From positions 28,968-92,967 of the forward strand of contig JACRCC010000048.1 in NCBI GenBank assembly GCA_016234405.1: a stretch of 64,000 nt of DNA. Reading direction: 5' to 3'. The number at the start of each line of letters is the position of its first letter. The stretch's first letter is position 1. The DNA is from Deltaproteobacteria bacterium (GTDB lineage: Bacteria; Desulfobacterota; GWC2-55-46). This document shows positions 2,576-18,884 of this stretch, one piece after another. The translations under genes and the position numbers were made by a program. The notes below the pieces were generated by a model that worked only from the letters and a program-made list of their open reading frames with translations, ran no database searches and was not told the origin of the DNA.

Positions 2576-2724
2576 TGGGAATAGACTGGAGCGTCATAAT
2601 CGCGGTGGTCGGCGGCGCTCTTTGGCTTGAGCGCCGCTTGAGTCGCATCGAAAACCTTTTAAAGGGGTGCCCTCATGTCTCTGAAAATCCGCCTCAGGTG
2701 GTGGGTCGAAAGACAGATATCTAA
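2575..2724 (+). CDS. 49-aa small membrane ORF (below track cutoff), TAATG-coupled to previous gene
   Basis: My own translation: MGIDWSVIIAVVGGALWLERRLSRIENLLKGCPHVSENPPQVVGRKTDI*. It has a single TM helix and is compatible with a spanin/lysis accessory protein. Confidence 0.2.
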   Translation: MGIDWSVIIAVVGGALWLERRLSRIENLLKGCPHVSENPPQVVGRKTDI

Positions 2725-3236
2725 GAGGCCGTGGCTGTTGCGGCTTCCGTTCGTAAAGAGGTATTTGCCCGTATGCGTGTTAAGATGTTCTTTACGTGCC
2801 CTTGAGAAAGCCCTAAGTGTTGCCCTATAGCGCGCGCAGTAAAACCTTTCCTCTTCAACCCTTCAACTTTTTCATTCCTTTCAAGAGCGGCCTTGCGCCG
2901 CTCTTCGGCTTTTATGTCCCTGTAGTAGAACGTGGCCATGTCATACCCAAATTCAAACTCTTTGCCGATGATAGAGACGATTTCACGGCGCGGTCGCGCT
3001 TTTAATTCATCAATGCGGCGCGCTACGGTGGCCGTGAATGCCTCTTTGCGGGCCTTGCGCTGGGGTTCATCGGCCTCCCACCGTTTGCGAGCGGTATAAG
3101 ACCTCTCAGCGCGTCCGAGGGCGGTCCCGAGTTCGGTAAGGACGGCGGCGAGGGTAAAGCAGGTGTCCGCATCGAGGGAGAGCGTCACTGTCGGAGCAGT
3201 GACGCCCTCCCTTACAGGGGCTACATCGAGCAGCAT
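2721..3236 (-). CDS. HTH-containing regulator (sigma-70 region-4/LuxR-like C-terminal helix-turn-helix), phage-associated
   Basis: C-terminal GFTARAIGQHLGLSQGHVKNILTRIR resembles an HTH. The body is charged and helical. Transcribed divergently from the lysis cassette. Confidence 0.4.
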   Translation of the reverse strand: MLLDVAPVREGVTAPTVTLSLDADTCFTLAAVLTELGTALGRAERSYTARKRWEADEPQRKARKEAFTATVARRIDELKARPRREIVSIIGKEFEFGYDMATFYYRDIKAEERRKAALERNEKVEGLKRKGFTARAIGQHLGLSQGHVKNILTRIRANTSLRTEAATATAS

Positions 3237-3608: not shown

Positions 3609-3842
3609 CTACTCAATTACCACGTTTGTGAGCGTCCTTTTTACGTGGCTTATCGCCTGAATCTTGCTAATGACGACGTCTCCGAGAACCTTGAAATTCG
3701 ACGCAGCCACGAGCGCAATCAGGTCATAAGGCCCGGTTACCATCCGCGCCTCTTTTACCCCGCCGATATTCACGAGCTTGTCCAAAACCTCTTTTGAGCG
3801 CGCATGTTCGCATTCAATGAATACATAAGCCTCTACGGACAT
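3609..3842 (-). CDS. standalone Lrp/AsnC-type ligand-binding (RAM) domain protein, no HTH
   Basis: 77 aa (…VFIECEHARSKEVLDKLVNIGGVKEARMVTGPYDLIALV…) matches the C-terminal effector domain of AsnC/Lrp regulators. There is no N-terminal DNA-binding part. Confidence 0.5.
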   Translation of the reverse strand: MSVEAYVFIECEHARSKEVLDKLVNIGGVKEARMVTGPYDLIALVAASNFKVLGDVVISKIQAISHVKRTLTNVVIE

Positions 3843-3866
3843 ATTCCACCCTCCTGAGTTAAAAGT

Positions 3867-4433
3867 CTAACGCAAGACTATCCTGCCTTCTTCGATGCCC
3901 TTTGCAATATCCTCTTCAGGCACGTATTCGTGCACGAGGTTCTGGTGGCAGTCTATGCAGGTGGTTCCGCTAGAGCCTATCTTTTTGTGCTGCATCTTGC
4001 CATAGTCGGATGCCGGATTAGGGGCCTTGTGGCACTTCCTGCAGTTTACGCTGTCGGTTTTTTTCATGGCAGCCCGCGCAATGTGCGCGAATGCGGCCCT
4101 GTGCTTGTCGAACTTTTCCTTTGTGTTCAGATCATACTTGAAATTTCCGATAGTGTCATGCACGCCCTCAGTCAGATGCGTGAATATCCTCTGTAGGAAC
4201 CTCGGCGGAAGATGACAGTCCTTACACTCCGGGTATATGCCGAGCCTTCCGAAGTGAGATGATTTTTTCGTCTCGGCGTCGGGAAAGGTCATGCTGTGGC
4301 ATGACGTGCAAAACTTATACGAGCTTATATGGCGCTCCGTTCTGTAGACGCCGTAAACGGCAGCGAGGGTTATTATGGCCGTTACGGCCACGGTTATCCT
4401 CCTGCCTTTTAAAAAACCTTTAATAAGTCCCAC
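3867..4433 (-). CDS. NapC/NirT/NrfH-family membrane-anchored tetraheme cytochrome c
   Basis: N-terminal TM helix plus four CxxCH motifs (CTSCH, CKDCH, CRKCH, CIDCH) spaced as in NapC/NirT quinol dehydrogenases. Confidence 0.7.
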   Translation of the reverse strand: MGLIKGFLKGRRITVAVTAIITLAAVYGVYRTERHISSYKFCTSCHSMTFPDAETKKSSHFGRLGIYPECKDCHLPPRFLQRIFTHLTEGVHDTIGNFKYDLNTKEKFDKHRAAFAHIARAAMKKTDSVNCRKCHKAPNPASDYGKMQHKKIGSSGTTCIDCHQNLVHEYVPEEDIAKGIEEGRIVLR

Positions 4434-4495: not shown

Positions 4496-4572
4496 TGGCG
4501 CCCCCGAGACGATTCGAACGTCCGGCACGCAGATTAGGAATCTGCTGCTCTATCCATCTGAGCTACGGGGGC
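4496..4572 (-). tRNA. tRNA-Arg (anticodon CCT), CCA encoded
   Basis: The reverse complement folds as a canonical cloverleaf. Acceptor GCCCCCG/CGGGGGC, D-stem GCTC/GAGC, anticodon stem GCAGA/TCTGC with loop TTCCTAA (anticodon CCT), T-stem GGACG/CGTCT with loop TTCGAAT, discriminator G + CCA. Confidence 0.85.
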
Positions 4573-4645: not shown

Positions 4646-5113
4646 CTAACCGCCCCGCCCCCAGAAATCGGCGTCAGGGACGCAATATCCCCTCTTAAAC
4701 GACGGATCCCTTTTCCTGACCCAATACTCTATTATCGAAAAGGCCCTGTTGTGGAATACGCCGTGATAGTGGAGAAATATCAGGTCGAAGAACATATGCG
4801 TCAAAAATCCCGCAAATACAATCCAGAAATAATGCGTTATAAAACCCAACAGAAATAGCGCGGCAAAGACTTCGACCGTATGGAAAACGCTCAACCCGTA
4901 GATGGCGTCCCTGTGTTTCTCCCAGAGCCAGTCGTGGAATTTGAACATATCCCTGATGCCGTATCTCCGGCACACGAAGGCAAAGTCGAAGTAGTGGTCT
5001 ACGTCTATGAATATTATACTTAAAAAAAGCGCGATATTTTCGGCAAGCCCTAAGAATAGGGATGCTATGGCGCTGGTTAGCGCGGCCTGCGCGACATGCT
5101 CCGTAAGTCTCAT
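4646..5113 (-). CDS. YdjM/DUF457-like membrane-bound putative metal-dependent hydrolase (paralog 1)
   Basis: Polytopic membrane protein with DxDH, FKxHD, VFHTxE, GFLxHxxxD and RAFSxxEY motifs. This pattern resembles E. coli YdjM (LPDIDH…FTHS…GYLSHxxxD). Paralog of 6707..7156. Confidence 0.4.
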   Translation of the reverse strand: MRLTEHVAQAALTSAIASLFLGLAENIALFLSIIFIDVDHYFDFAFVCRRYGIRDMFKFHDWLWEKHRDAIYGLSVFHTVEVFAALFLLGFITHYFWIVFAGFLTHMFFDLIFLHYHGVFHNRAFSIIEYWVRKRDPSFKRGYCVPDADFWGRGG

Positions 5114-5185
5114 TCCCCTCCCCCGCCGAAGGAGGGTATTGCCCTCTTAAGGGCGCTTCCCGCTAAAGTTTTTTCCATTCGCCCA

Positions 5186-5213
5186 TTGACAACATGAGAT
5201 GTGCGGCTATACT
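5186..5213 (+). promoter_or_regulatory. candidate sigma70 promoter (TTGACA -16 nt- TATACT) facing the + strand gene at 5547
   Basis: TTGACA at 5186-5191 and TATACT at 5208-5213. Lies in the 430-bp divergent intergenic region. Confidence 0.3.
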
Positions 5214-5546
5214 TAAGACACTTGACGACGATATTATAGCAGGAAATCTCGCAGTTATGAATTTTGATGCAGGGCGCAAGGCGTAGTTTGGTTTGTCAAC
5301 GGCACAGGGCAAAAAAGGTTTGCCGCGCCTTCACCTGAGAAATCATCACTGTTTTTCCCCCTCGGAAATCCAACACATAGAAGTTCGGCTCTCCACGAAC
5401 GCCCCACTAAGTCCTTTTACTCATCCGCGAATTTCATCAAGGCAATAACTCGATGCTGCGTCTGGCCGCATTTACGGCAGTTATTCGATTCTTAACCACG
5501 CATCTTAGGCCTTTGCAACTCGAGCGCGAAACACTCTCGGGTTTAA

Positions 5547-6086
5547 ATGTTCCACCGAATTCTTTTTTTGGGCTTAATTATGTTCCTGCTCTGTCTGTGC
5601 ATACACGTCGCGGTGTGGAGGAATCGTTATCCTAAAAACAGACCCGCGGCGCTTCTTTTTATCTTTATTGTTTTGCCTGTAATTGCCGCGTCAATGTTAG
5701 CGGCGTTAAGCCGTTTTGCCGTTTTTATGCCTTTTGACGTGGGAACATGGGGGATTCCTCTCATTGAGTTTACCGGGGCATACCTCCTGCACTTTTCACT
5801 CTCGGCCGCGTATATCATGAGTTACCCGGCCGTGGAAGCCGTCTCGCCGTCACTCATGCTCGCGCTCATAATAGGCGGATCCAACGAACGAGGGGTGTCC
5901 ATTGAAGAGCTTATTTCGACCTTTGACGGCAAGTTTCTCCTCGAACCGAGGATTAAAGACTTGAAAGACGCAGGCATGGTGAGCGAATCGAAAGGTCTCC
6001 TTTCGCTTACTCGCCGTGGAAAGAGTTTTGTAACGCCTTTCATCGTTTTAAGACGCGCGCTCGGATTGCCGATAGGAGGGGGGTGA
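5547..6086 (+). CDS. membrane-anchored protein with C-terminal winged-helix-like domain (paralog B)
   Basis: About four N-terminal TM helices, then GVSIEELISTF…RIKDLKDAGMVSESKGLLSLTRRG (MarR/PadR-like wHTH pattern). Paralogous to 6093..6701. Confidence 0.35.
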   Translation: MFHRILFLGLIMFLLCLCIHVAVWRNRYPKNRPAALLFIFIVLPVIAASMLAALSRFAVFMPFDVGTWGIPLIEFTGAYLLHFSLSAAYIMSYPAVEAVSPSLMLALIIGGSNERGVSIEELISTFDGKFLLEPRIKDLKDAGMVSESKGLLSLTRRGKSFVTPFIVLRRALGLPIGGG

Positions 6087-6092
6087 TATTTC

Positions 6093-6701
6093 ATGGACGG
6101 ACTAATTCCGGCGCTTATGCTGCTTTCCGCGGCGCCGATGCTTGTGTTTTTTATGCAACTCGCGGCAAACGGGTTTTTAAAGGCGCTAAAAATAAAAATA
6201 TCAAACCAGCTCGTCGTGATATTGTGCTGTGCGGCCGGCCACGCGCCAATAGCTGCAATCCTTTGGACCGTGTATCTGCAAAAAATCGCCTCCGCGTCTG
6301 AACTGACGCTCGCCGCGCTATATTGTCTCATCGTCTATAACGCCCTTGCATACTCCTACTTCCACCTCTTCAATATGAGCGAGACGGCAAGGCGCATCCG
6401 TATACTTTACGAGATATACTCCACCGGCGTTTTAAGCGCGTCTCAGATAGCGTCGTCTTACAACCCGTCTGTCATGGTGAAAAACAGGATTGAAAGGCTT
6501 GTCGCGATGAGGCAGATAAAACAGAGCGGCAACCGGTACTTCCTCGATCAAAGGCTCATCTTTGCCGTCTCCTCCGCCGTTGCAGGCTGGGGCGCCCTTC
6601 TCAGTATACCGTATCCTGCAATGAGGAAATCCGCCTCCAACGGGAAGGCGCGGCTTGGGCAGTCCCTCGTGAAACAAGACGCCAAGCAAGACGCCGCATG
6701 A
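6093..6701 (+). CDS. membrane-anchored protein with C-terminal winged-helix-like domain (paralog C)
   Basis: TM-rich N-terminus, then VLSASQIASSYN…RIERLVAMRQIKQSGNRYFLDQRL. Starts 7 nt after paralog B. Confidence 0.35.
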   Translation: MDGLIPALMLLSAAPMLVFFMQLAANGFLKALKIKISNQLVVILCCAAGHAPIAAILWTVYLQKIASASELTLAALYCLIVYNALAYSYFHLFNMSETARRIRILYEIYSTGVLSASQIASSYNPSVMVKNRIERLVAMRQIKQSGNRYFLDQRLIFAVSSAVAGWGALLSIPYPAMRKSASNGKARLGQSLVKQDAKQDAA

Positions 6702-6706
6702 TGTCA

Positions 6707-7156
6707 TCAGGTATCCCGCGCCTTAACGACCTCGCGTATCGAGGTGAAGTATCCCCGCCTCCTCCTCACTAAATACTCCGCTACCGAAAATGCCCTCGCG
6801 TAAGGACGTCCCATATAACTCAGCTGCAGCTGGTCCAAGAGATGATGAAAGAGAAACCCCATCAGGACAAGATTGGCTTCGTCAAGATATAAGCCCGCGA
6901 CGTAGAGCACGGCGTAACACTCGAGCGTGTGAAATACGTTAAGACCTAAAAAGTTGTCGAGGTTATTTAAGAGCGTGTCGTGGTATTTGAAAAGGCCTCT
7001 TATGCTGACGCTTTTGGTATCGAGCCAGTACTCAATAAAATGGTCGAGGTCTATGGCAACCACCGCGGCGCCGAATATGAGGGCATTGAACCCGATAAAC
7101 GGATATAGCGCGGCCGCCCCTGCCGCAGCCTGCGCCGCGTGCGCCTCTGGTTTCAA
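6707..7156 (-). CDS. YdjM/DUF457-like membrane-bound putative hydrolase (paralog 2)
   Basis: Same DxDH / FKYHD / VFHTLE / GFLFHHLLD / RAFSVAEY motif set as 4646..5113. Stop overlaps the start of the upstream YfhO gene. Confidence 0.4.
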   Translation of the reverse strand: MKPEAHAAQAAAGAAALYPFIGFNALIFGAAVVAIDLDHFIEYWLDTKSVSIRGLFKYHDTLLNNLDNFLGLNVFHTLECYAVLYVAGLYLDEANLVLMGFLFHHLLDQLQLSYMGRPYARAFSVAEYLVRRRRGYFTSIREVVKARDT

Positions 7157-9612
7157 GCTGATTTTTCTCCCGCTCGTTTTTTGAAGGCTTCCACCGTTAT
7201 AACGCCAACGGAGACGGCCAAACCCAAGTAATACAACACAAGGGCCGTCATGTATAGCCGAGGTTCAAACGACATCACCACTGTATGCTCCCCCTTTTCG
7301 AGATAAACGGCCTTTCCGTTATAGTTGGCCGTTGCTATCGGCGTTTCATTACCGTTGACATAAGCCTTCCAGTGCCTGCTCCAGCCGTCGTTGTAGAGTA
7401 AATACCCTTGGGTCTTATTTTTGACCAAAACGGTAATGCCGTTCACGTTGAAATCTATCAGTTTCACGTCCCCGCCAAAAGCCTTGACGCCGCCAGCTAT
7501 GGAATCTTTCAATACCGCAAACGCCTTTACGTTACCTTCGCTGAATCTCTTCCAGTATTCGTCCACGGCGCTATTTTTTAACCATAAGACGTCCTCGAAC
7601 TTGCTTAAGTCACCTAATCCGGTCTCCGCTTGCCCCGACCCTTCTCTCCTCGCCTGTTTGCCGTCTTTTTCCACATACAAAAAACCGTCAAGCTCCTCAG
7701 GCGCGGCATGGCCTAACCGGTCGAGAAGAGAATTCCTGTCCTGTGCCACCCTCACCTTTGAGAGCGGGTAAAAACCGAGGATAGGCGACGTTACTCCGTT
7801 TAAGACGAATTGGTTGGCCAGAGGCGCGTTAGTAAGGAGGTCATAATATCTTTTGGTGGTGAATAACGAGTGGTTATAGCCTCTTGAGAGCGCGCCTTTG
7901 CGCATGGTCAAACTTTCTCCGAAGGCCACGTCGGGGAGCGAACCGTAAGGCGCCCTTAGATATTCAAATTCGTTTTTCCCCCCTTTCGGGCGCGCATCGT
8001 TAATGACGCCATAGAGGGTTGCCGAGTCTTTAAGGACGCTGCCTTTGATCGAATCGTTGTATAAATAAAGGTCGGTCAGGACAAGCGCCGCTATCACCGC
8101 AAAAAAAAACTTTTTGCCGAATAGACCGCGCGAGTAAATGGCCGCGGAGATAACAAAAAAAACGACGGCGAGCATCACGAGTTCGTCGGTTGAAGATTTG
8201 AAAACTGCCCGCTTGAAGAGATATGCCGTTAACCCGGCCTTCACGAATATCAGCGCAAGCCCGATAACTATTACCCCGTGATATTTCTCCTTGAAAAAAT
8301 CCTTATAACCGCACCCGTCAAAAATAAGCGACAGACCGAAACTCATGAGAAGACCCAAATACAAAAAGATGAAACTGTTAAGCGTCTCCCTCACCTCCAG
8401 CATCTTGAGCGGCGGGAAGACCGCGTTAAAGGCCTTTTGCGCGGCGTTGAAAGGTTTTGCGTCAACGCCTGAGCCGCTGAACATGTTCAATGACACGAGG
8501 ACGAGCATGAGGGCGCACACGAACCGCAGTCTTGATTTTGTATAGATAAGACCTATCACGGCCAAGATGAGCGGGACCATGCCGAAATATTGAAAGGTCT
8601 CGGATATCAGGTTCTCGTCCGAGAACCAATCGCCGGGGTTTGAAAACGACTTCCACATATCCTGATATAGAAGGCTCAGCGCGTTTCCGTATGAACTGAA
8701 AACCCCCCTTTGCCCGGTGAACTCCCCGGACAGGGATGCGCTGTTGATGCCGGAGGCCGCAATCTTCTTGAACTGGAGATTATTTTTTTGAATTATCCTC
8801 TGCATGGGAAAAAGCTCTCCGCCGCCGGATGCGTCAAAATACATAACGGCCGCGGGTGGAGCGGCCATTATCATCGTTATCACAACGCAACCAAGCACGA
8901 AGGTCAGAAGTTTTGTTGAGACAAGATTCTTTAAAACCCTCCTCATGTCTACAATCTTGAACAAAAACAGCCCTAACGCAAAAAAGACGATATTGAAGAG
9001 GTAAAACGACGGGATAAAAACGTTCATGGTGACGCCCGTTATCAGCGTAAACACGGCGAGGTGCAGATACCTGCGCCGAGTCTCGATGCATTCAAAAAAA
9101 AGCAGAAGAAAAAACATGGCTAAAGGCGTCAAAAAGACGTTGTCAATGACCCCCATCTGTCTCAGATAAGACGGCGTAACGGCAAGGAGGACGCCTCCGG
9201 CGGCAAGCGCAGCCGCAGACTTTTGTTTAGTCAGATGTTTGAAGAGAAGATACGCCCCGATGACGAAGATAAAGAGCCTGACAAGCCTGAAGTAGACGTA
9301 AGCGGTGAGCGCAGAGATACCGAAGACCTTTACCGAGAAGGCGCTTATAAGGACAACGGGGTCGAGAAGCCCCATGTGGGATATATTGGGGTAGAAGTAA
9401 GTGCCGGAAATCAGGTAGGGGTCCCAATAGGGGAATCTCAGATTACCGAGCGACTCTATGAAGTAGTGGAAGCTCCCATACCAGATTATCGAATCATGGA
9501 TGAATATCTCGCTGCAAATAAGCAGCTTATAGTAAAGAACGGCAAAAATAACCGCAACTGCCGCGCTGACGGCTATCATCGTGATGTCTCCTCTTGTGGA
9601 CATGCGCAGCAT
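7153..9612 (-). CDS. YfhO-family polytopic membrane protein (GT-C-like glycosyltransferase), paralog 1, no CBM insert
   Basis: 819 aa; many TM helices. Conserved N-terminal HDxxxWYGxFHYFxESL…PYWxPY and C-terminal GWxxHWKAYVNGxE…G(E)HTV plus a final TM, shared with the other two paralogs and typical of YfhO. Confidence 0.5.
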   Translation of the reverse strand: MLRMSTRGDITMIAVSAAVAVIFAVLYYKLLICSEIFIHDSIIWYGSFHYFIESLGNLRFPYWDPYLISGTYFYPNISHMGLLDPVVLISAFSVKVFGISALTAYVYFRLVRLFIFVIGAYLLFKHLTKQKSAAALAAGGVLLAVTPSYLRQMGVIDNVFLTPLAMFFLLLFFECIETRRRYLHLAVFTLITGVTMNVFIPSFYLFNIVFFALGLFLFKIVDMRRVLKNLVSTKLLTFVLGCVVITMIMAAPPAAVMYFDASGGGELFPMQRIIQKNNLQFKKIAASGINSASLSGEFTGQRGVFSSYGNALSLLYQDMWKSFSNPGDWFSDENLISETFQYFGMVPLILAVIGLIYTKSRLRFVCALMLVLVSLNMFSGSGVDAKPFNAAQKAFNAVFPPLKMLEVRETLNSFIFLYLGLLMSFGLSLIFDGCGYKDFFKEKYHGVIVIGLALIFVKAGLTAYLFKRAVFKSSTDELVMLAVVFFVISAAIYSRGLFGKKFFFAVIAALVLTDLYLYNDSIKGSVLKDSATLYGVINDARPKGGKNEFEYLRAPYGSLPDVAFGESLTMRKGALSRGYNHSLFTTKRYYDLLTNAPLANQFVLNGVTSPILGFYPLSKVRVAQDRNSLLDRLGHAAPEELDGFLYVEKDGKQARREGSGQAETGLGDLSKFEDVLWLKNSAVDEYWKRFSEGNVKAFAVLKDSIAGGVKAFGGDVKLIDFNVNGITVLVKNKTQGYLLYNDGWSRHWKAYVNGNETPIATANYNGKAVYLEKGEHTVVMSFEPRLYMTALVLYYLGLAVSVGVITVEAFKKRAGEKSA

Positions 9613-9615
9613 TAC

Positions 9616-10359
9616 TTAGCTCCCGGCGCAGCGCTTGACGATCCTCGAGACTAAAAAATCCGGTAAAAATCTCATTGTCTTGCTTATGAAGGCATTAAGA
9701 AACGGAAAGTCGAAGACGCCGTTTAAACCCGGCGACGCAAGACGCCTGACAATTTTTTGAGCGGCGCTTTTGTAATGGATTTTAAGAAGTCCTGTCCTTG
9801 ACTCGTCAGGCGACATTCCGCCTGGATTAACGGTTACAAAACGCACCTTCGACGGCGTCATCTGCAGTCTCATGCACTCAAACGTCATGCTGAGCGCGGC
9901 CTTACTGCCGCTGTAAGCTATTTTTTTGTTGTTTAATCCCCGATAAGATGAAAGCGATGATATGGCAACGAAAGTCCCTCCATCCCTCTCCACGAAGACC
10001 GGTAAAAAAAGGTCGAGCCACGCAACGGCCCCAAAGAGGTTTATCGCGTAGGTCTTCTTGAACACGTCATAAGAAAACGTCCCGTCAAGGTCGTTTTCCA
10101 TGACCCCGGCGTTTAATACCACAATATCCGGCACAAAACCCGCCTCCTTCATCTGCGCCCGCACGCGCTCGGCGTCGGCCATTACGGAGACATCGCAAAC
10201 GCTGAAACGGAAAGACCCGTTAGACGTTAAACGCCCATCATTGTCCCATGCCTCAATCTTCCTCCTCGCAACGCCCCAGACCTTATGCCGCTCCGTTAAA
10301 AACTCGTTTGTCAGCGCCCTTCCGAGACCCGACGATACGCCCGTTATAAACACGTTCAT
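9616..10359 (-). CDS. short-chain dehydrogenase/reductase (SDR)
   Basis: ITGVSSGLG (TGxxxGxG), NAG motif, catalytic YSGSK (YxxxK). 247 aa. Confidence 0.7.
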   Translation of the reverse strand: MNVFITGVSSGLGRALTNEFLTERHKVWGVARRKIEAWDNDGRLTSNGSFRFSVCDVSVMADAERVRAQMKEAGFVPDIVVLNAGVMENDLDGTFSYDVFKKTYAINLFGAVAWLDLFLPVFVERDGGTFVAISSLSSYRGLNNKKIAYSGSKAALSMTFECMRLQMTPSKVRFVTVNPGGMSPDESRTGLLKIHYKSAAQKIVRRLASPGLNGVFDFPFLNAFISKTMRFLPDFLVSRIVKRCAGS

Positions 10360-10373
10360 CCTTCACCATTCCT

Positions 10374-13340
10374 TTATTCTTTAGTTCCGTTATCCTTTTT
10401 TCTCGCTGATACTATGACCCCGTTTATGATAAACGCCGCTCCGAAGATGAGATTGGCTGCAACGTATATTTTAACGGCAAGAAGAAAAAACCAAGGGTTG
10501 TAGCGGAATATGACCGTGTGTTCGCCTTTCTTTAGAGGCACGGCCTTGAACGAGAGGTTTGCCCTGTGGAGTCCGTGCTTTATGCCGTCCACAAAGACCT
10601 CCCAGTGGCTGTCATAGATATCCCTGTAAAGGAGCACGCCGTCTTCGCGCCCCTCAACGTCGAGTTCGAGCCGCGTGGGGATGTAAGACCTGACGGCGTA
10701 TTTGAAAACACCGTCCTTTGGTTCGCCGTTAGGCGCGCCGCTCGCTGAGGGCACGGTAGTCAAAAGATGCGCAAAATCACCGTCTAATTCACCGGATACA
10801 AATACGGCATTATCGAGCGCCTTTGACAAGGCGGCCGGGTCGCGTGTCAGCATACCCCATCCTGACTGTTCGTCAATAAGGGTAAGGGATGCGTCATCGA
10901 ATACCGCAGGGGCGTCTGCGCGTGATGAGACGTTACAGGTTAAGTGCAAGACCTTCGCCCCTTTGCTTATTCTTGCGGACGCCGATATCTTTTGCCAGTC
11001 TCCGGTCTTTGAAAATGACGATATTGACGGCGGCCCAATGCCGTCTTGCAGGTCAATTTGCACCACGTCACGCTCGCCGTTGTTGCTTTTTACCCAAATT
11101 GAGAATACGGCGCGTTTTCCGGCGTCTCCTTTTTTCAGATTGACGCTTTGCCGGAGCATTGAATTGCCTTCCGACGACGGCGCCACCATCGCTCCAATCT
11201 TGCCTTTTAAATGCGCGATTTTTTCCATCCGCACCGAACCGTTTTTGCCGCCCTGTGTGTAGTCCCATGATGACGGACGTTGAGACGCGCCGTCCACCCA
11301 TGTCTCGAATGAGCCGTTTAAAACGGTCTTTTCGTATCCCCCCGCCGATGGAGCGGGGGGATATTCTATGACTCCGCTTTTGAACGTCTGAAACTGCGCA
11401 GGCACAGCCATCATAACCGCCTTCGTAAAATAGGCGATCAAGGGCGCTTGAATACCGGCGAGCTTTTTGAAAATCGGGGTGTTCTCCTCAGCCACCTCGT
11501 AAAGAATAAAATACGGTTTCAGCCAAAAATGATAAAGGCCCTGCGAAAAATTCATCTTGAAGTCCGCCGTTATATTCGTGGGCTGGCCGTTTCTCTTGGA
11601 CGGGATGAGGTCGTCAAATGAAGCGTTCACCTTGAGGATTGTCGGACTGTAGGCAAGATACGTTTTTTTAAGGTTAAGCCCCGCCACCCTCTCCGTAGAC
11701 AGCGTCCATGATTCGGATGCGTTTTTACCGAACTGAAATCCCGAAAAATATTCGTCGCGGTTTTGTTTGAAATGGTGTCCGTCCTCGCCGTGATAATCGC
11801 ATATAACGATAGTTTCCAAAATGATCAGCATCATCATAACTGACAAAAGCACGCCGGACTTTACCGCAGGTTTGAAGAATTGAAAGAAGAGAAAGATACC
11901 CGCGAGGGAAAAAACCAAAACCGCGATGAACCAATCCCTTGAAAATGTTAGAAAGAAATGATTGAAAAAATTGGCGTTCATGACGACGAAGTAGAAAAAA
12001 CACCCTGCGACGGCGACTATCGAAAGGTCAACAAAGACGCCTCTCAGACTTATGCGTCCACCATCAACCGGCAATGGAACGAACTGTGATTTTCCCGCGG
12101 TTTCAGATTTTAAAAGATATTCGAGCATTGCGTCCGCGCCGAGTCCGATGAAAAATATACCCGCAAAAAAAACAAAAGGCTCAAACATGCTAAAGTGTCT
12201 TACGAGCCATAACGGCGGGAATGAGAAGTAGAGTATCTGATGGAGAAGACGTATATCTTTTAAAGGGCCGATATACAATATATACATGACCACGGTTAGG
12301 GCGGCGAAATTCCATTTGAACCTATGAACTCCAAACAACAACCCTATGACAAAAAGTATCCGAGCCGCCCAGCTTATCTCAGGATATTCGTAGTGCCTTC
12401 CGTAAGGCAAAAAACCGAGCAGATAATCGGGATTGCCTACGCCGATTTGCGGGTCTCTTTTCTTCATCATCTCGTAATCAACCCCGAGGATGCCGGCGAT
12501 TCCCTGCGTCTTCTTCTCCACGCGTGAATAATCCCTTGCTATCGGGACTATATTGGCCCTCTCCGGCATAAGGGACAATATCGGGAGCGAGAGCGCGGCT
12601 AAAAGCGCCGCGCTGATTATTACGACCCTCTTATCCTGCGTGAAGACGTTGCGCAGTTCCTTTCTCTGCCTGAGGACCAGGGTAATGAGGAAGACCGCGA
12701 TGAAATAGAACGGCAGCGCCCAATGATAGGTGGATGCGCCGAAGACAACGCCGCAAAGGTAGGCGAAGGCCATCACGTCATACTTGCTTGACCTGTCAAG
12801 CATCCGCATGAGGAAATACATCATCCATGGCAGCCAAGAAAAAACGTCAATATTGCCGACGGAAAGAAGCGTTGACTCGGCCAGCAAAAGGCATACAACC
12901 ATAACCACAAAGAGGCTGAGAAACCTCTTGAAGATGCGCCTGTAGAACAGATATATCCCCGCAAGGGTCACGACGATGCGGATTATGTAATTGTAATGAT
13001 AGAGGTCGAAAAGCGGCGGGTTGAAAAATTTTGCAATCACGATGACCGAGAGCGTAACGGGGTCAAGAAGGCGCAGTATCCCCCACGCGTAATAAAACGG
13101 CTCCCCGCCGTGCACATACGGATTCCATGTCGGCAAAAAACCGCTCCACAGCGATTCAACGAAGTAGTGGAACATGCCGTACCAGAGGATGCCGTCGTGC
13201 ACGTAGGTGCTTTTGCCGAGCATGATGCTCCGTTCCATGTAAAGGTAAAGGGCAAGCAAAATCCCGATAAAAAAAAGCTCTCTCTTGACGCTTTTCGAAT
13301 CACACGCGCCTGAGAAAAACCAATTCAAAAATTGAGTCAT
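10374..13340 (-). CDS. YfhO-family membrane protein, paralog 2, with CBM4/9-like beta-sandwich insert in the extracytoplasmic region
   Basis: 988 aa; same N- and C-terminal YfhO signatures. Internal NGSFETW…SSEGNSMLRQ…VQIDLQDG segment resembles CBM_4_9 carbohydrate-binding modules. Confidence 0.5.
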   Translation of the reverse strand: MTQFLNWFFSGACDSKSVKRELFFIGILLALYLYMERSIMLGKSTYVHDGILWYGMFHYFVESLWSGFLPTWNPYVHGGEPFYYAWGILRLLDPVTLSVIVIAKFFNPPLFDLYHYNYIIRIVVTLAGIYLFYRRIFKRFLSLFVVMVVCLLLAESTLLSVGNIDVFSWLPWMMYFLMRMLDRSSKYDVMAFAYLCGVVFGASTYHWALPFYFIAVFLITLVLRQRKELRNVFTQDKRVVIISAALLAALSLPILSLMPERANIVPIARDYSRVEKKTQGIAGILGVDYEMMKKRDPQIGVGNPDYLLGFLPYGRHYEYPEISWAARILFVIGLLFGVHRFKWNFAALTVVMYILYIGPLKDIRLLHQILYFSFPPLWLVRHFSMFEPFVFFAGIFFIGLGADAMLEYLLKSETAGKSQFVPLPVDGGRISLRGVFVDLSIVAVAGCFFYFVVMNANFFNHFFLTFSRDWFIAVLVFSLAGIFLFFQFFKPAVKSGVLLSVMMMLIILETIVICDYHGEDGHHFKQNRDEYFSGFQFGKNASESWTLSTERVAGLNLKKTYLAYSPTILKVNASFDDLIPSKRNGQPTNITADFKMNFSQGLYHFWLKPYFILYEVAEENTPIFKKLAGIQAPLIAYFTKAVMMAVPAQFQTFKSGVIEYPPAPSAGGYEKTVLNGSFETWVDGASQRPSSWDYTQGGKNGSVRMEKIAHLKGKIGAMVAPSSEGNSMLRQSVNLKKGDAGKRAVFSIWVKSNNGERDVVQIDLQDGIGPPSISSFSKTGDWQKISASARISKGAKVLHLTCNVSSRADAPAVFDDASLTLIDEQSGWGMLTRDPAALSKALDNAVFVSGELDGDFAHLLTTVPSASGAPNGEPKDGVFKYAVRSYIPTRLELDVEGREDGVLLYRDIYDSHWEVFVDGIKHGLHRANLSFKAVPLKKGEHTVIFRYNPWFFLLAVKIYVAANLIFGAAFIINGVIVSARKKDNGTKE

Positions 13341-13347
13341 AATTTCT

Positions 13348-13896
13348 CTATTTCACCTCCCATTCAGCTATGGATGTGTGGTTTTTATCCGACACGGTCT
13401 TCAATATCCTCAGTCTGTAATGGGAATACTTATCCGTTTGTTTGAGCGAATACGTATTTTTAACGGCGTCCCACTTTTGTCCTTTTTTTTCTTCGATGGT
13501 CTTCCAATCGGCGTCAGAACTTGGAAGATTGTCGGAGGCTGCGCCCTCAAGGATAAAATCAACCGGCGCTTGAGTAGCTGTTATCTCGGAACGCCGCGTT
13601 ATGGCGTAACCGGAGGCCGCGAACGGTTTTGAGAATGACATCGAAATCCAGCCGTAGTCGCCGGCAGGGCCTCCTGAATGCCAGAACGTCTTGGCGTCAT
13701 TGTCGTAAAACTTCAAGGGGTTTAACGACTCCGAATATATGCTCTTTGCCCCCAACACGACGTCTCCAGACTTTTCGAATACCGGGGACTTTGTTTGAGT
13801 CTTGACGGAAGAGGCGGTTTCACTTGAATCGCATGACATGCAAACCGCCAAAATCAAAATTGAAATTGCCGCAGTGAACAGGTCTTTTTTCATCAC
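13348..13896 (-). CDS. secreted/lipoprotein with F5/8 type C (discoidin)-like domain
   Basis: Signal peptide with Cys (ILAVCMSC). …KTFWHSGGPAGDYGWISMSF…VDFILEGAASDNL…WKTI… matches the discoidin-domain pattern. Confidence 0.45.
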   Translation of the reverse strand: MMKKDLFTAAISILILAVCMSCDSSETASSVKTQTKSPVFEKSGDVVLGAKSIYSESLNPLKFYDNDAKTFWHSGGPAGDYGWISMSFSKPFAASGYAITRRSEITATQAPVDFILEGAASDNLPSSDADWKTIEEKKGQKWDAVKNTYSLKQTDKYSHYRLRILKTVSDKNHTSIAEWEVK

Positions 13897-13910
13897 ATCC
13901 CTCCTTGTGT

Positions 13911-15047
13911 TTAGATATGGAATACCTCTTGAAGCTGTCTTTTGACGATGTATACGAGCTGTCTTGCCGAAAGTCCGAGCAAGAGATTGTAGTCGTTATT
14001 ACTCAGATGCGGGCATGCCACGCATCTGTTGGTTTTTCTCACGTGTTCAATGGCCTTTGCAACGCCCACCTCCTTTAAGTTGAGCGCCTTGAATTCCTCG
14101 TTCAAGGGAAAACACGGATAGACATAACCGTTAGCCTCCACCACGAACTTCGACCGCCCGTAATAGCATCTGATAGGCTCGAAACCAACCGGAAGCTCTT
14201 GGGGGGTCGCATGGTGTTTTACGTTGTAATCGAATGGCCAGCTCATCGAGTAGTTAAGGCATCTGTCCGAGGTGAAGATGGGATAGCCCTGATTTTTGAA
14301 ATACAGTATCTTGGAGAGAGATTCCCTTATCTCCTCCTGACTCATCCCCATGTCAAGAGCCTTTTTCAGAGGCTTGTAAAGTATGCTGAAGTAGAGCTGG
14401 AACTTATGCTCCTTTGCAAGTTTTGCGAGGAATTCTATGTCGTGCATGGTGTTGCGCGTGAGCGTAGCCGATACGCGCAAACGAAATTTTTCTTTTGACG
14501 CAAGTTTGATGGCGTCTACGGCGGCCTTGAAAGACCCCGTACCCCTGTTGAGATCGTTGCCCGCTTCATTGCCGTCAAGGCTTATGCAGAGGCTGTCAAC
14601 GTTCCTGACCACGTCAAGATTTTGCGCCAACAAAATTCCGTTCGTGATGAAGCCGACGTAGATACCCTTCCTTTTGATGTAATCAACGATATAACCGACG
14701 TCCTTCCTGAGAAGCGTCTCCCCGCCGTGGACCACCATGTATCTCGTCCCTAAGGCGTAGAGATCGTCTATGACCTTGACGAGTTCCTCGGTCGTATAAT
14801 CCTTGTCGCGTCTATTGCCGTAGTCGCCGAAACAGTAATGGCAATCGAGATTGCACCTGTTGTTCACGACAAGCACGACGGAAATCGGCTCGCTCTTCCC
14901 AAGGGCTTTATTGCGGACTATCCTATACGGGAATACGAGTCTCTGACGTATTGTAGACAGGGCCTTGTTCCAATGTTTTTTGTCAGTTTTCAGTTCTTTT
15001 GAAATCATACGCGGCCCCCTTGGACTTTGTGTTTTCAACGGAAACAT
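13911..15047 (-). CDS. radical SAM enzyme with C-terminal SPASM/twitch-like Cys-rich domain (peptide/protein-modifying maturase class; anSME-like). True start possibly at 15008
   Basis: CNLDCHYCF (CxxxCxxC) radical SAM cluster motif. C-terminal …CYYGRSKFVVEANGYVYPCFPL…NRCVACPHL fits auxiliary Fe-S (SPASM) cysteine patterns. Confidence 0.65.
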   Translation of the reverse strand: MFPLKTQSPRGPRMISKELKTDKKHWNKALSTIRQRLVFPYRIVRNKALGKSEPISVVLVVNNRCNLDCHYCFGDYGNRRDKDYTTEELVKVIDDLYALGTRYMVVHGGETLLRKDVGYIVDYIKRKGIYVGFITNGILLAQNLDVVRNVDSLCISLDGNEAGNDLNRGTGSFKAAVDAIKLASKEKFRLRVSATLTRNTMHDIEFLAKLAKEHKFQLYFSILYKPLKKALDMGMSQEEIRESLSKILYFKNQGYPIFTSDRCLNYSMSWPFDYNVKHHATPQELPVGFEPIRCYYGRSKFVVEANGYVYPCFPLNEEFKALNLKEVGVAKAIEHVRKTNRCVACPHLSNNDYNLLLGLSARQLVYIVKRQLQEVFHI

Positions 15048-15771
15048 TGTATAGACTGAGAAGTTCGGCTATCTCCTTTTCGGTAAGCGGGTTTGTCCAC
15101 ACGGCAACCTCGTCAATGCCCCCCCTGTAATATCTCGCGTCGCTGGAAGTGAATTTTCCGAAGGTCATCGGCGCGGGGTTGAATTTAAAGGTTTTGTAAT
15201 TTGCGGTCGCCCGCGACTTTCTGCCGTTCACGTAAGCGCTCATGCTTTTATTCTTTTTGTCTATGATGAGAATGACGTGAGACCATTTTTCGCGCGGCAC
15301 GTTGACAATTACGACGTTTCCGCTCGAATACCACGCAAACTTCTCCGCCTTCCTGTCGGTTGATTGGAATACCATGTTGCTTGCCTCGTCATGGTCCGTA
15401 TCGAAGACTATGCAGTTCGAATCCATTTCACACTCTTCGGGTTTCATCCACAATGAAACGGTAACCCCGGATTCAAAACTCGCGGTATTGACGAGGGTAT
15501 CTATATGCGAATCCCTGCCGTTGAAATGCGCGGCCTTTCCCGAAACCCCCTCAACCTGTTCCGTCCGGTACGTCCTCATGCTGTTTATCCCCTTGGAGTC
15601 GGTGAACAGGTCTCCCTGATTCGCATCCATGTCCCAATGCGCCAACGCCTTCGACAGGATATTTTTTTGTTCTTTCTTCGGTTGGCCGGTCTCTGCCGCA
15701 TAACATTGACCGGTCGAAAAAACAGAAACTGCCGCGAAAAGCACGGCGATAAAAAAACCTTTAACTTTCAT
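14983..15771 (-). CDS. secreted LamG-like (concanavalin-type jelly-roll) domain protein
   Basis: Signal peptide MKVKGFFIAVLFAAVSVFSTGQCYA. C-terminal GGIDEVAVWTNPLTEKEIAELL is the hallmark Laminin_G_3 motif. The 3' end overlaps the radical SAM gene start. Confidence 0.55.
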   Translation of the reverse strand: MKVKGFFIAVLFAAVSVFSTGQCYAAETGQPKKEQKNILSKALAHWDMDANQGDLFTDSKGINSMRTYRTEQVEGVSGKAAHFNGRDSHIDTLVNTASFESGVTVSLWMKPEECEMDSNCIVFDTDHDEASNMVFQSTDRKAEKFAWYSSGNVVIVNVPREKWSHVILIIDKKNKSMSAYVNGRKSRATANYKTFKFNPAPMTFGKFTSSDARYYRGGIDEVAVWTNPLTEKEIAELLSLYNVSVENTKSKGAAYDFKRTEN

Positions 15772-18700
15772 CTTTCTCCCTCCTTTCCGTCGTCTGTGCG
15801 GTCTGTCCGGTTATTACGTTTGTCATGAAGAAACAAGAACGCAGCGGCAAAAACACTCATTGAAAAAACCGAGTAAAAAACAGACAAGGCCGCTTTGAAG
15901 AGCGCAGGCTCAAAAACGAATGTTATCTCGTTTGTGCCCTTTATCAGCGGGATGGCCTTGAAATTGACGTTTGCCCTGTAGATACCGGTCTCTACCCCGT
16001 TTACATAAGCCTTCCATGATTTATCAAAACCGTCCGACCAATAAAGGAAACCGTCCTCGTCGGACACGGCAGTAATCCGGATAGAGTTGTAATCGTAGTC
16101 ATGCACCGTGTATCTGAATGGATTTTTTAGGGGGCCGCCGCTTGGGACAACCGCCGGCTGCCCCCCGCCGGCCTCTTGCGAGAGTATGACGGTATCCTCT
16201 AAAAATCTGACGCCTTCCTCTGGCGTCATTTTTGCGAAGAAATTCCGCAAGCCATCATCTCCAACCCTGCGCGCATGTCTCTTGAACTGGAACTGCGGCT
16301 CGCCTATCGCAAAGGTTTTTTCAATGACCTGATGAGGCGCCCCTGAGTGTATGAGTTTGTAATAATTGCTCGTCAAAAGAAAACTGCTCCATCTTTTCAT
16401 TCTCAAACCGTACTCAAATGTCTTTTCCCTGAGCGGTATGTATTGAATTGCCGCGTCTTTGAATATTGCATCAGACCTTGCCTCCGACTTCACGTTCAGG
16501 GTAAAAAAAACGGCATCAACGCCGCCATCAATGTGTTTTTCCACGGTCAGGGTTTCCCACTCGCCGGAATTGCCGTATGAAACGGTTTTAACCGGCAAGA
16601 CGCCGTCCTGAACGTCTATCTGGACGCCGCCCGGCGCCTGTGACATGCTCTTGGCCTTTACGGAAAACCAGACATACGCGTCCTTTACCGAACCGGATGA
16701 ACTTCTGAACTGAACGAGCGAATTACCCTCGGACGAAGGGCTGATACTCATGATGACTGAGCCGTCGGACATTTTTTTTTCTTTAAACTCTCCGCCGTCG
16801 CCGTCCTGGCTGTATGTTAAAGGCAGGTCGAAAAACTTCTTAGACGCCGACGTTTTAACCAGCGTAATTTTCTTGCCGGTGTAGTCTATCGGTTCATCGG
16901 GCATGACCGTTGAAAGGGCATCCGCCTTGCGATGCAGTACCGACAGATACCTCATTGACTGTTCCCCTTGCAACTGAGACGGCTCAATGTAAACCGACCG
17001 CTGCCAAAACCAATCAGGTCTTTGCGGCGTGGTTCGCACCTTGTAGGCGCCGCCGGGGTGTTTTGCGGACTCATAAAGAAATGATGTCTTTCTCAGGCTG
17101 AACGTGAGGTCGAGGAGCAGGCATATATAAAATATGACAAGCGCGAGGGCAAAAAAATATCCGTTAAAGAGACCTTTAGAGGACGATCTTTTGTTGATAA
17201 TTTTCAATATCAAAAAAACCGTAATAGGGATGAGGAGCGATACCGCCATGTACTTCAGGAATTTATGGGCGTTGTTTGAAAAGACTAAAACGGCTGCGAC
17301 GTGCAGGACAACCGCTCCCGCGTAAAGCCGCTTGGAGCCGATCGTTTTCCACAACAGCAGAAAAGTCAGAATACCCAAAGGAATAAAGACGGATAGATAC
17401 TCGCTTACAAATTTAGCGAGTTCCTTCACGGCCGTATATCCGAACATCATGTATGCAGCGGCCCCTAACGCTAAGACTACGACGGCGGAGGGCGCCGCAT
17501 ATTTCTTGAGGTCAACTTCGGTTTTACCGGGAAAGATATCCGTTTCCCATGTCTTGAAAAGGTGATTGAGCCCGATTACATAAAAGAAAAGAAGGGAGAA
17601 TATGAAGAAAAGCACGAAGGTGTGCGTGTGCCTCACGAACCACATCGGAGGATAGACGTAATAAAGCGCCTTGTGCAGACCGCCTGCGGGCCCGAGCATA
17701 AGAAGCGCGGTCGCGGCAAGGACAAATAACCATACTCGCTTGAGTTCATGAGTCCCTGCTATGACGCCGATGAGGGAAATCGCCCACGGCAGAAAACCGA
17801 GATACATGTAGGCCTCTGACGGTTTCCCCCACAAACTCCGATTAGGCCACCGTATGTGGTCATTTCCGTCAGGCGCTATCAGCTGTATGAAGTCGCTGAT
17901 ATGAGAAAACGTCCCGGTGTGAGCAATGAGTTTATAGGGCATGATTATGCCGGAAACCGGCAACGAAGACGGCCCTGACTCATACTGGACAGGGCCTCCG
18001 AGAGGCGGCTTATTTTCATACGCGTCATCCACCATCCGCGCAGGAAAGACGAATTTGCCCTTTTCGGCGAACAAAACGACGTCGGGCGCGGCCATCATGA
18101 CGACTATCAATAAGGCTGCGCCTGCCCTAAGAACCGATGGCCGCGTATTCCGGAAGTCCCGCAAAAGGTCAATCCTAAAGATGCAAACCCCGGCAACGAA
18201 AAAAAGGGAAAAAATCCATGCCCCCGTAAAGAAGTACGACTGCCAGTTGAGACCGGTCACCGCGCCGAGCATAAGATAGTTGTGCCAACTGTGGTCTTTC
18301 TCCCAGATGATGTTGAGGAAGAAGTATGTGATGTACGGGACCCAGATGAACTGGTTGAGTATCGCATCCTGCCTAAAAGAACCTAGCATAAAAGAGGAAA
18401 AAAGGAGTATGGGGATGATGCTCGCGCGCGTAAAGACGTTTAGCGCAAAACGTCTCAACACGATATGAACGCCAAACGCCGTTACAAGCAGCTCGATAAA
18501 CCTATTCCAGTTAAAGAGCATAACGATGTCGTTTGTCACAAACCTGCCGAGCAAAATCGTCAGCCATGCGGCCGGCTCATAAAACCTTAACTGTGCGAGC
18601 GCCGGATAGAAAGGCTCGCCGCCGTGACTGAACGGATTCCAGTAAGGCAGCCTCAAACTCATGAGGTTTTCGGCAAAAAATTGATATATCGGGTAATTCC

Positions 18701-18872: not shown

Positions 18873-18884
18873 GCCTTCGAGTTC

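Follow-up and report, generated by a model that had tools for sequence, protein, structure and literature searches.

A widespread gene pair for predicted membrane-anchored winged-helix proteins, with two YdjM-like neighbours, at the end of a putative surface-glycan modification cluster of a deltaproteobacterium

Four small genes at the end of a YfhO operon

In the 64 000-nucleotide stretch of DNA analysed here (the window), which comes from a contig of a Deltaproteobacteria bacterium (JACRCC010000048.1), four small genes lie side by side next to an operon for YfhO-like membrane proteins, and we refer to them as A, B, C and D (Table 1). A preliminary description of the sequence had taken them for a two-gene module, a YdjM-like membrane hydrolase with a membrane-anchored winged-helix partner, that had been duplicated in tandem and rearranged. 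That reading is tempting but wrong: the conserved unit is B followed by C, and A and D are old, separate members of another family. All four genes are present in the open reading frame (ORF) list with the coordinates and strands that had been given for them, and their starts are consistent with the family alignments; gene B is 100% identical to protein P0038 (locus tag HY884_05475). A and B are divergent over a 433-bp spacer, and C and D are convergent with their stop codons 5 bp apart, so that convergent transcription of the two must overlap. D overlaps the stop of the YfhO-like gene upstream of it by 4 nt (7153–7156) and is therefore the last gene of the YfhO operon, as had been proposed.

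B and C are an obligate tandem pair

C-anchored loci were collected by scanning one genome per species with the two best-conserved peptides of the C family; 119 loci were confirmed and 80 were kept, all of them from metagenome-assembled genomes or single-amplified genomes and together spanning more than 15 phyla. The B and C genes in these loci were called with profile hidden Markov models made from the family alignments. In 78 of the 80 loci the gene directly upstream of C, and on its strand, was a B-family ORF; in the other two C stood at a contig edge. The stop of B fell within ±30 nt of the start of C in 65 of 76 pairs, with an estimated median distance of ~7 nt. An A/D-family gene, by comparison, was found within 10 kb in only four of the 80 loci. 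B followed by C is thus an obligate tandem pair, and it is this pair that forms the real conserved module. The pairing of A with B and of C with D is falsified by these two counts, and the co-occurrence of hydrolase and winged-helix protein expected from the preliminary description was not borne out by comparative genomics.

The pair occurs in Omnitrophota, Elusimicrobiota, Nitrospirota, Thermodesulfobacteriota, Planctomycetota, the candidate phyla radiation and other phyla. It is a widespread, conserved and unannotated two-gene unit, whose homologues are all without a functional name in the source databases; a literature search on the two families found nothing, unnamed families not being directly searchable. 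In one Elusimicrobia locus (L016:9269–11032) the order is B–C–B, a second B-family ORF standing directly after C. In four others (L053, L061, L062 and L063) B and C are ~790–840 nt apart rather than the usual few nucleotides, which points to the insertion of a gene or the divergence of an N-terminus.

Relationship and predicted structure of B and C

Compared by BLASTP, B and C gave no alignment (E 11). The family alignments, built from nine B and 30 C sequences, nevertheless matched in hhalign with 94% probability and an E-value of 9e-8, over the C-terminal 64 residues only, and the B and C profiles also cross-matched weakly in other loci (E 2e-5 to 2e-6). The paralogy that had been claimed for the two genes therefore holds at the profile level, for this C-terminal stretch, and not at the level of BLASTP; judged from the profiles, the two are remote homologues of like architecture and not recent duplicates. 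Nine homologue clusters were found for B and more than 196 for C, none of the latter with a Pfam domain.

The AlphaFold2 (AF2) model of C, with a mean predicted local distance difference test score (pLDDT) of 81.7, has three transmembrane (TM) helices at residues 4–32, 38–60 and 68–93, followed by helices at 95–111, 116–122 and 125–138, a β-hairpin with strands at 142–145 and 148–151, and an amphipathic helix at 154–169; the tail past ~176 is not conserved. Residues 95–151 are predicted in this model to form a winged helix, of helix-helix-helix-β-hairpin topology, in keeping with the TM bundle and the tail resembling a winged helix-turn-helix (wHTH) that had been recognized in the preliminary description. 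B and C are both predicted to be membrane-anchored winged-helix proteins. Basic residues follow TM1 and TM3 of C, which by the positive-inside rule would place its winged helix in the cytoplasm.

The best-conserved stretch of C, Y87-x-Y89-F-H-x-F-N-M-S-E-T-A-R-R-I-R-I-L105, is near-invariant and lies at the junction of TM3 and the winged helix, and R132 and R135 are invariant across the >15 phyla. In B the conserved positions are H20, W24-R25, S84-x-S86, Y89, Y93-P-A, A98, P101, R135, D138 and an LGLPxGxG C-terminus, of which those from S84 to P101 occupy the place equivalent to the junction of C. The net charge of the winged helix is mildly basic in C (median +3) and neutral to acidic in B (0, range −5 to 0).

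In Pfam, C had no match and B had weak ones only, to HemN_C (E 0.009) and HTH_45 (E 0.12); neither protein matched an NCBIfam model, and the MarR/PadR-type wHTH regulator models of both collections gave no match to B or C. The EamA, SMR and GtrA families of Pfam did not match B or C either, nor did GtrA match A or D. A Foldseek comparison of C with the PDB gave nothing significant (best E 2.6, with MarR-like chains among the non-significant matches), and the C-family profile found no match among PDB sequences.

A and D belong to two old clades of a YdjM-like family

A and D are 38% identical over 112 residues (BLASTP, E 8e-23) and have in common IDVDH/IDLDH, FKFHD/FKYHD, VFHTVE/VFHTLE, GFLxHxxxD and RAFSxxEY; they are thus paralogues, and all the motifs formerly quoted for them are present. 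When family members were collected and compared by BLAST, D proved 40–49% identical to its own orthologues (P0176, P0170, P0178 and a gene of L018), which are only 28–38% identical to A, and the orthologues of A are 47–86% identical to A and ~33–36% to D. Each protein being closer to its own orthologues, A and D represent two old clades and are not local duplicates. A repeat search around B–C for a recent inversion or duplication gave short, chance-level matches only.

Neither A nor D matched a Pfam or NCBIfam model, with no match to PF04307 even at E ≤ 1, and none of the 37 close homologue clusters of A had a Pfam domain. A profile search of 1.8 billion representatives returned 1257 clusters of the A/D family at E ≤ 1e-3. 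Among 66 diverse members, H6, D37, D39, H40, H78, G102, H106 and D110 are invariant and E81 and R123 nearly so, and the invariant His/Asp pattern looks like a metal site. PF04307 (YdjM) was the best Pfam family for 37 of these 66 relatives, with a best E-value of 4.9e-6 and all matches below threshold; DUF6122 was best for 12 and Zn_dep_PLPC for two. Against a PF04307 gathering threshold of 29 bits, example relatives scored 12.7–17.3 bits and the Escherichia coli YdjM control 122 bits.

The members of YdjM/DUF457 (PF04307; COG1988 ‘membrane-bound metal-dependent hydrolase’; YdjM and YbcI in E. coli) are, like A and D as predicted here, small all-helical integral membrane proteins, and both groups have an N-terminal His, DxDH, a central His and HxxxD in the same order and with similar spacing. 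The aligned motifs of A are H6, IDVDH at 36–40 (D37xDH40), FHTVE at 77–81 (H78) and HMFFD at 106–110 (H106xxxD110), and those of E. coli YdjM are H6, PDIDH at 45–49 (D46xDH49), HRGFTHS at 71–77 (H71/H75) and HILAD at 113–117 (H113xxxD117). On the other hand, A and D are shorter (~150 versus 196 aa), carry extra conserved T79/E81, R123-A and E129-Y motifs, and sit in glycan clusters, whereas E. coli ydjM belongs to the SOS regulon. Compared directly with the single E. coli YdjM, the A-family profile gave an E-value of 0.047 and a probability of 1% in hhalign and 5 bits (E 1e-3, one target) in hmmsearch; both results are marginal, with the GxLxHxxxD segment alone aligned. From the shared motif set and the 37 sub-threshold matches we infer kinship to YdjM at the level of a superfamily and not family membership, and the comparison supports a distinct A/D family inside the YdjM superfamily but outside PF04307 as now defined. 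The identification with YdjM (DUF457) made in the preliminary description is therefore upheld as regards the motif constellation and the matches of relatives, and not as regards PF04307. The literature on YdjM/DUF457 contained mentions of expression and regulon only, and no activity; an apparent further mention concerned DUF4579 of the CRISPR effector Cap1, which has no bearing on these proteins.

The AF2 model of A is all-α (pLDDT 89.5), and A has hydrophobic segments at residues ~7–35 and ~73–113. It had no significant fold match among known structures, and the A-family profile had no match among PDB sequences.

Close homologues of A adjoin YfhO, B12-binding radical S-adenosylmethionine (B12-rSAM) and B–C genes in about seven of the 10 loci with enough flank. 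The order is A-rSAM-B12rSAM-B-C in L089 and L095, B12rSAM-A-B in L098 and L100, LamG-B12rSAM-YfhO-A-B-C on a single strand in L099, and A-B12rSAM-YfhO in L091, L093 and L094. GT2 glycosyltransferases, methyltransferases and B12-rSAM enzymes are encoded next to genes of the D clade, as are a GDSL hydrolase and an unannotated protein of 566 aa. One 573-aa protein (P0265) is a fusion that joins an N-terminal A-like domain, all motifs kept, with a Wzx-type Polysacc_synt (MOP) flippase. The functional link to the YfhO operon that had been suggested for D is strengthened by these contexts and by the fusion. The more distant A/D relatives (30–38% identity to A) had none of these glycan-type neighbours among their recognisable families. 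A short-chain dehydrogenase/reductase (SDR) of the type found in the window also adjoins A/D-family genes in L018 and L020.

Genomic neighbourhood of the B–C pair

The ORFs of the 80 loci were clustered without prior labels, and the cluster representatives were annotated with Pfam. GT2 enzymes were found in 37 loci, rSAM/SPASM enzymes in 32, NAD-dependent epimerases/dehydratases in 28, B12-rSAM enzymes in 27–30, DegT-type aminotransferases in 20 and SDRs in 13; thiamine pyrophosphate (TPP)-dependent E1 components, sugar nucleotidyltransferases and heptose-pathway enzymes also lay near B–C. The large polytopic proteins of the neighbourhood fell into at least six separate clusters, several of them YfhO-like, and YfhO (10) and PMT_2 (7) were the leading Pfam families among the 67 large neighbours that remained unclustered. 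Proteins of 450 aa or more with eight or more hydrophobic segments were present in 48 of the 80 loci, and 68 had a glycan enzyme or such a protein. Canonical GtrA (PF04138) accounted for three of the 103 small ORFs neighbouring B–C, and 36 of the 45 GT2 proteins had no predicted TM segment. An rSAM/SPASM gene stood directly upstream of B in seven loci and a B12-rSAM gene directly downstream of C in eight, and the pair is located in biosynthetic operons, where it is often in translational coupling with enzyme genes. The setting of B–C is one of carrier-lipid-type glycan modification with an unusual enrichment of radical-SAM chemistry.

Pairs of TPP-dependent E1 α and β subunits (transketolase-like) occur in ~11 of the 80 loci (L006/L007, L057, L069, L082 and others), a hint of branched-chain or two-carbon-extended sugar synthesis. 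In L003–L005 (5275–6397) and L010, from a RIFCSP Deltaproteobacteria locus, two small unannotated genes (211 aa and 103–128 aa) stand between the YfhO genes and B–C; they had no match to the A, B or C profiles. A cluster for a peptide made on ribosomes and then modified post-translationally (a RiPP), which rSAM/SPASM and B12-rSAM genes with small ORFs might indicate, was ruled out, because what recurs beside B–C is sugar-nucleotide enzymes, GT2 and GT-C proteins and because B and C are no precursor peptides but polytopic membrane proteins that are conserved.

The cluster in the window

From its first gene to its last, the minus-strand operon that ends with D encodes a B12-rSAM enzyme, a YfhO-like protein, a LamG protein, an rSAM/SPASM enzyme, an F5/8-like protein, another YfhO-like protein, an SDR, one more YfhO-like protein and D (Table 1). 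The three YfhO-like proteins score 25.9, 29.0 and 31.2 bits against the Pfam gathering score of 28.5 and have 10–14 hydrophobic segments each. All three match Pfam YfhO in their last ~75 residues only, the polytopic N-terminal cores being unrecognised, and they therefore look like GT-C enzymes that have diverged strongly; that a single operon carries three such paralogues points to three distinct transfer steps or acceptors.

Table 1. Features of the four-gene locus and the adjoining cluster, in window coordinates.
Feature	Position	Strand	Description
tRNA-Arg(CCT)	4496–4572	−	ARAGORN; Rfam tRNA 61.6 bits; left boundary of the cluster
Gene A	4646–5113	−	155 aa (ORF list); YdjM-superfamily-like membrane protein, A clade
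A/B divergent intergenic region	5114–5546		433 bp; back-to-back sigma-70-like promoter matches
Gene B	5547–6086	+	179 aa (ORF list); three hydrophobic helices and a C-terminal winged-helix-like domain (predicted)
Gene C	6093–6701	+	202 aa (ORF list); three TM helices and a winged helix (predicted)
Gene D	6707–7156	−	149 aa, TTG start (ORF list); paralogue of A, D clade
YfhO-like polytopic membrane protein, putative GT-C glycosyltransferase	7153–9612	−	819 aa; Pfam YfhO E 4e-6; 14 hydrophobic segments
SDR	9616–10359	−	247 aa; Pfam adh_short E 1e-28
Second YfhO-like membrane protein	10374–13340	−	988 aa; Pfam YfhO 29.0 bits, above gathering score
Secreted or lipoprotein-like protein	13348–13896	−	182 aa; weak F5/8 type C (discoidin) match, E 0.006, sub-threshold
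Radical SAM/SPASM enzyme	13911–15047	−	378 aa; Pfam and NCBIfam scans
Secreted LamG/concanavalin-like lectin-fold protein	14983–15771	−	262 aa; Pfam Laminin_G_3 E 3e-19
Third YfhO-like membrane protein	15768–18872	−	1034 aa; Pfam YfhO 31.2 bits
B12-binding radical SAM enzyme	18885–20456	−	523 aa; Pfam B12-binding and Radical_SAM; first gene of the minus-strand operon

In the spacer between A and B a consensus scan matched a putative promoter on the plus strand (TTGACA-16-TATACT, 5186–5213) and another on the minus strand (TTCATA-17-TATAAT, 5261–5233), both of them matches only. If the plus-strand match is real, B would have a leader of ~330 nt (5214–5546), in which no Rfam family was found at E ≤ 1. 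At 6678–6695 on the minus strand, within the 3′ end of C, is a hairpin that resembles a terminator for the convergent D operon; it falls in the non-conserved and low-confidence tail of the C protein (residues ~176–202).

Proposed roles and their alternatives

We consider it likely that the four small genes encode accessory membrane components and lie at the end of a cluster of ~16 kb (4646–20456) for the modification of surface glycans by carrier-lipid-dependent extracytoplasmic glycosylation; its core would be the three YfhO-type GT-C glycosyltransferases, the two radical-SAM enzymes and the SDR. B and C very probably form a heterodimer, which would work on the cytoplasmic side of the membrane, in a pathway of polyprenyl-phosphate-linked sugars, probably as a membrane adaptor or translocator. 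Most likely it would present the acceptor lipid to TM-less GT2 and radical-SAM enzymes of neighbouring genes, or serve as their membrane tether, and/or translocate the lipid-linked sugar to GT-C enzymes in the periplasm, and would thus fill the niche of GtrA/GtcA or ArnE–ArnF, or of DPM2/DPM3 in the eukaryotic dolichol-phosphate-mannose (DPM) synthase. We propose this role from the obligate co-encoding of remote paralogues in a glycan context that has no constant enzyme partner, from the rarity of GtrA, and from the position of the conserved polar/basic motif right at the membrane interface. A and D are probably membrane-embedded metal-dependent phosphoesterases; they would cleave a phosphoester bond in a lipid-linked intermediate and thereby either free the carrier lipid or remove a phospho-linked group. 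This role is suggested by the invariant His/Asp set, by kinship of the YdjM/phospholipase C type, by the occurrence of both clades in a glycan context and by the fusion to a flippase.

Multi-component transmembrane glycosylation systems have been described in GtrA/GtrB/GtrC, CsbB/GtcA/YfhO and ArnC/ArnE-F/ArnT (PMC8035078, PMC5836110, PMC7389260). The B–C loci resemble them in combining a YfhO/PMT-type GT-C protein, a GT2 and small membrane proteins in one cluster, with B–C in the position of the small membrane protein. They differ in that B and C are predicted to have three TM helices and a cytoplasmic winged helix, as against the four TM helices of GtrA or the EamA/SMR folds, in that the cluster of the window has three GT-C genes and no GT2, and in the prominence of radical-SAM and B12-rSAM enzymes, which is atypical of the characterised systems. 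ArnE and ArnF, which are proposed to flip undecaprenyl-phosphate-L-Ara4N, and heterodimeric SMR pairs are comparable in that two small membrane proteins of remote homology are encoded one after the other, in tight coupling, beside a GT-C transferase; no sequence or fold relationship to B and C was detected, however, the number of TM helices is not the same, and the soluble winged-helix domains are a feature of B and C. DPM2 and DPM3 are small membrane proteins that tether and stabilise the TM-less GT2 catalytic subunit of DPM synthase. The mostly TM-less state of the GT2s near B–C is reminiscent of this arrangement, although there is no homology and a GT2 is present in 46% of the B–C loci only. 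For A and D the nearest functional counterparts would be UshA (YqjL) and UpsH (YpbG) of Bacillus subtilis, shown by Roney and Rudner to be hydrolases that act on accessory-glycan intermediates linked to undecaprenyl phosphate or undecaprenyl pyrophosphate and so free the carrier lipid (PMC11898649). The same role is proposed here for A and D, but the folds are unrelated, UshA and UpsH being an α/β hydrolase and a calcineurin-like metallophosphoesterase.

The proteins that deliver lipid-linked sugars to GT-C enzymes are known for few systems (GtrA/GtcA and ArnE/F) and are poorly understood even there, and B–C, two proteins of ~180 aa, is a concrete candidate for the missing glycosylation component. 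The A/D family would likewise give the uncharacterised YdjM/DUF457 superfamily a functional context, that of lipid-linked glycan intermediates, and three families are now defined that databases leave as ‘hypothetical protein’. A bolder proposal, which we offer tentatively and think rather less probable than not, is that B–C represents a new class of heterodimeric inner-membrane machine, each subunit having three TM helices and a winged helix, for polyprenyl-phosphate-linked sugars, which would translocate them, or present the carrier to TM-less GT2 and radical-SAM enzymes, and would replace components of the GtrA or ArnE/F type in many uncultivated phyla; the YFHxFNMSETARR stretch would then be a lipid-phosphate binding or catalytic site.

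Several observations weigh against the roles proposed above. No GT2 was found in the cluster of the window (4.6–20.5 kb) or among the other window genes scanned, and no sugar-nucleotide enzymes were found in the cluster; the lipid-linked donor must therefore come from elsewhere. No enzyme family is universal with B–C, and with GT2 as the highest, at 46%, no specific enzyme partner is established. A and D accompany B–C in only four of the 80 loci, so the two kinds of protein need not share a step. The TM counts and the orientation were derived from crude hydropathy and from the positive-inside rule, three TM helices with a soluble domain are unlike any known flippase, and there is no solved structure or significant fold match for A or C. 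As to the phosphoesterase role, A and D fall below the Pfam YdjM threshold, the direct match of profile to YdjM is marginal, and YdjM itself is without demonstrated activity.

The appeal of the duplicated module lies in the paralogy of A and D, the remote homology of B and C and the contiguity of all four genes: an ancestral hydrolase gene and winged-helix gene would have been duplicated in tandem and rearranged into A + B and C + D, each winged-helix protein being the sensor or regulator of its hydrolase. We regard this as hardly credible, given that B→C is a unit in 78 loci and A/D genes are near it in four, that A and D are in different old clades (D being 40–49% identical to its own orthologues and 28–38% to the A clade), that B and C have diverged beyond the reach of BLASTP, and that no flanking repeats suggest a recent rearrangement. 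B and C might instead be a membrane-tethered pair of DNA-binding regulators, acting on operators such as the A/B divergent region and coupling the status of the envelope or the carrier lipid to expression of the glycan cluster. The C-terminal domain of C has the predicted topology of the MarR/PadR/ArsR-type winged-helix factors, the non-significant tail of the Foldseek matches is rich in MarR/ArsR-type regulators, the winged helix of C is mildly basic, and divergent promoter-like sites adjoin B. Yet no MarR, PadR or HTH model of Pfam or NCBIfam matches at a meaningful E-value, the best structural match has an E-value of 2.6, the proteins would be anchored by three TM helices, and the domain of B is non-basic, indeed neutral to acidic. 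Conservation is strongest at the membrane junction and not in the recognition helix, the invariance of R132 and R135 of C across >15 phyla would be unexpected if operators differ between hosts, and B–C has its place among biosynthetic genes in operons, with frequent translational coupling to enzymes. A regulator pair is thus improbable, and the sensor or regulator role considered in the preliminary description for the winged-helix partner gained no positive support.

An unlikely but less remote explanation makes B–C a subunit that docks the B12-rSAM and rSAM/SPASM enzymes or presents their substrate; these enzymes would modify a lipid-linked sugar or a lipid, and the pair would have no part in translocation or in GT2 function. 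These enzymes are the commonest immediate neighbours of the pair (seven loci upstream of B, eight downstream of C), the orders A-rSAM-B12rSAM-B-C and B12rSAM-A-B recur, and the tail of B weakly matches HemN_C, a winged-helix-like domain of a radical-SAM family; that match is sub-threshold, however, rSAM families are within 10 kb in 27–32 of the 80 loci only, and in many loci B–C is flanked by GT-C, GT2 and epimerase genes only. A and D, for their part, might be non-enzymatic, small structural or channel-like membrane proteins whose His and Asp residues bind a metal for stability or sensing, as would fit the lack of a YdjM/DUF457 activity in the literature and of a structural match to a known hydrolase. 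The eight invariant His/Asp/Gly positions in a family of more than 1200 clusters, the sub-threshold matches that reach Zn_dep_PLPC, and the recurrent glycan context and flippase fusion make this quite improbable, and we prefer the phosphoesterase role for A and D and the adaptor or translocator role for B–C.

Surroundings of the cluster

The glycan cluster (~4–22 kb) has a GC content of 0.48–0.52, compared with 0.53–0.56 in the rest of the window. Phage-like genes lie upstream, namely an SLT lytic transglycosylase (1814–2287), small membrane ORFs and an HTH/sigma-r4-like protein (2721–3236). Together with the tRNA gene at the boundary, the lower GC content and the phage-like genes suggest a tRNA-flanked island or a prophage remnant. 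Between the latter genes and the tRNA, at 3609–4433 on the minus strand, are a NapC/NirT-type tetrahaem cytochrome (188 aa) and then a 77-aa protein that consists of a stand-alone Lrp/AsnC ligand-binding domain without a DNA-binding domain.

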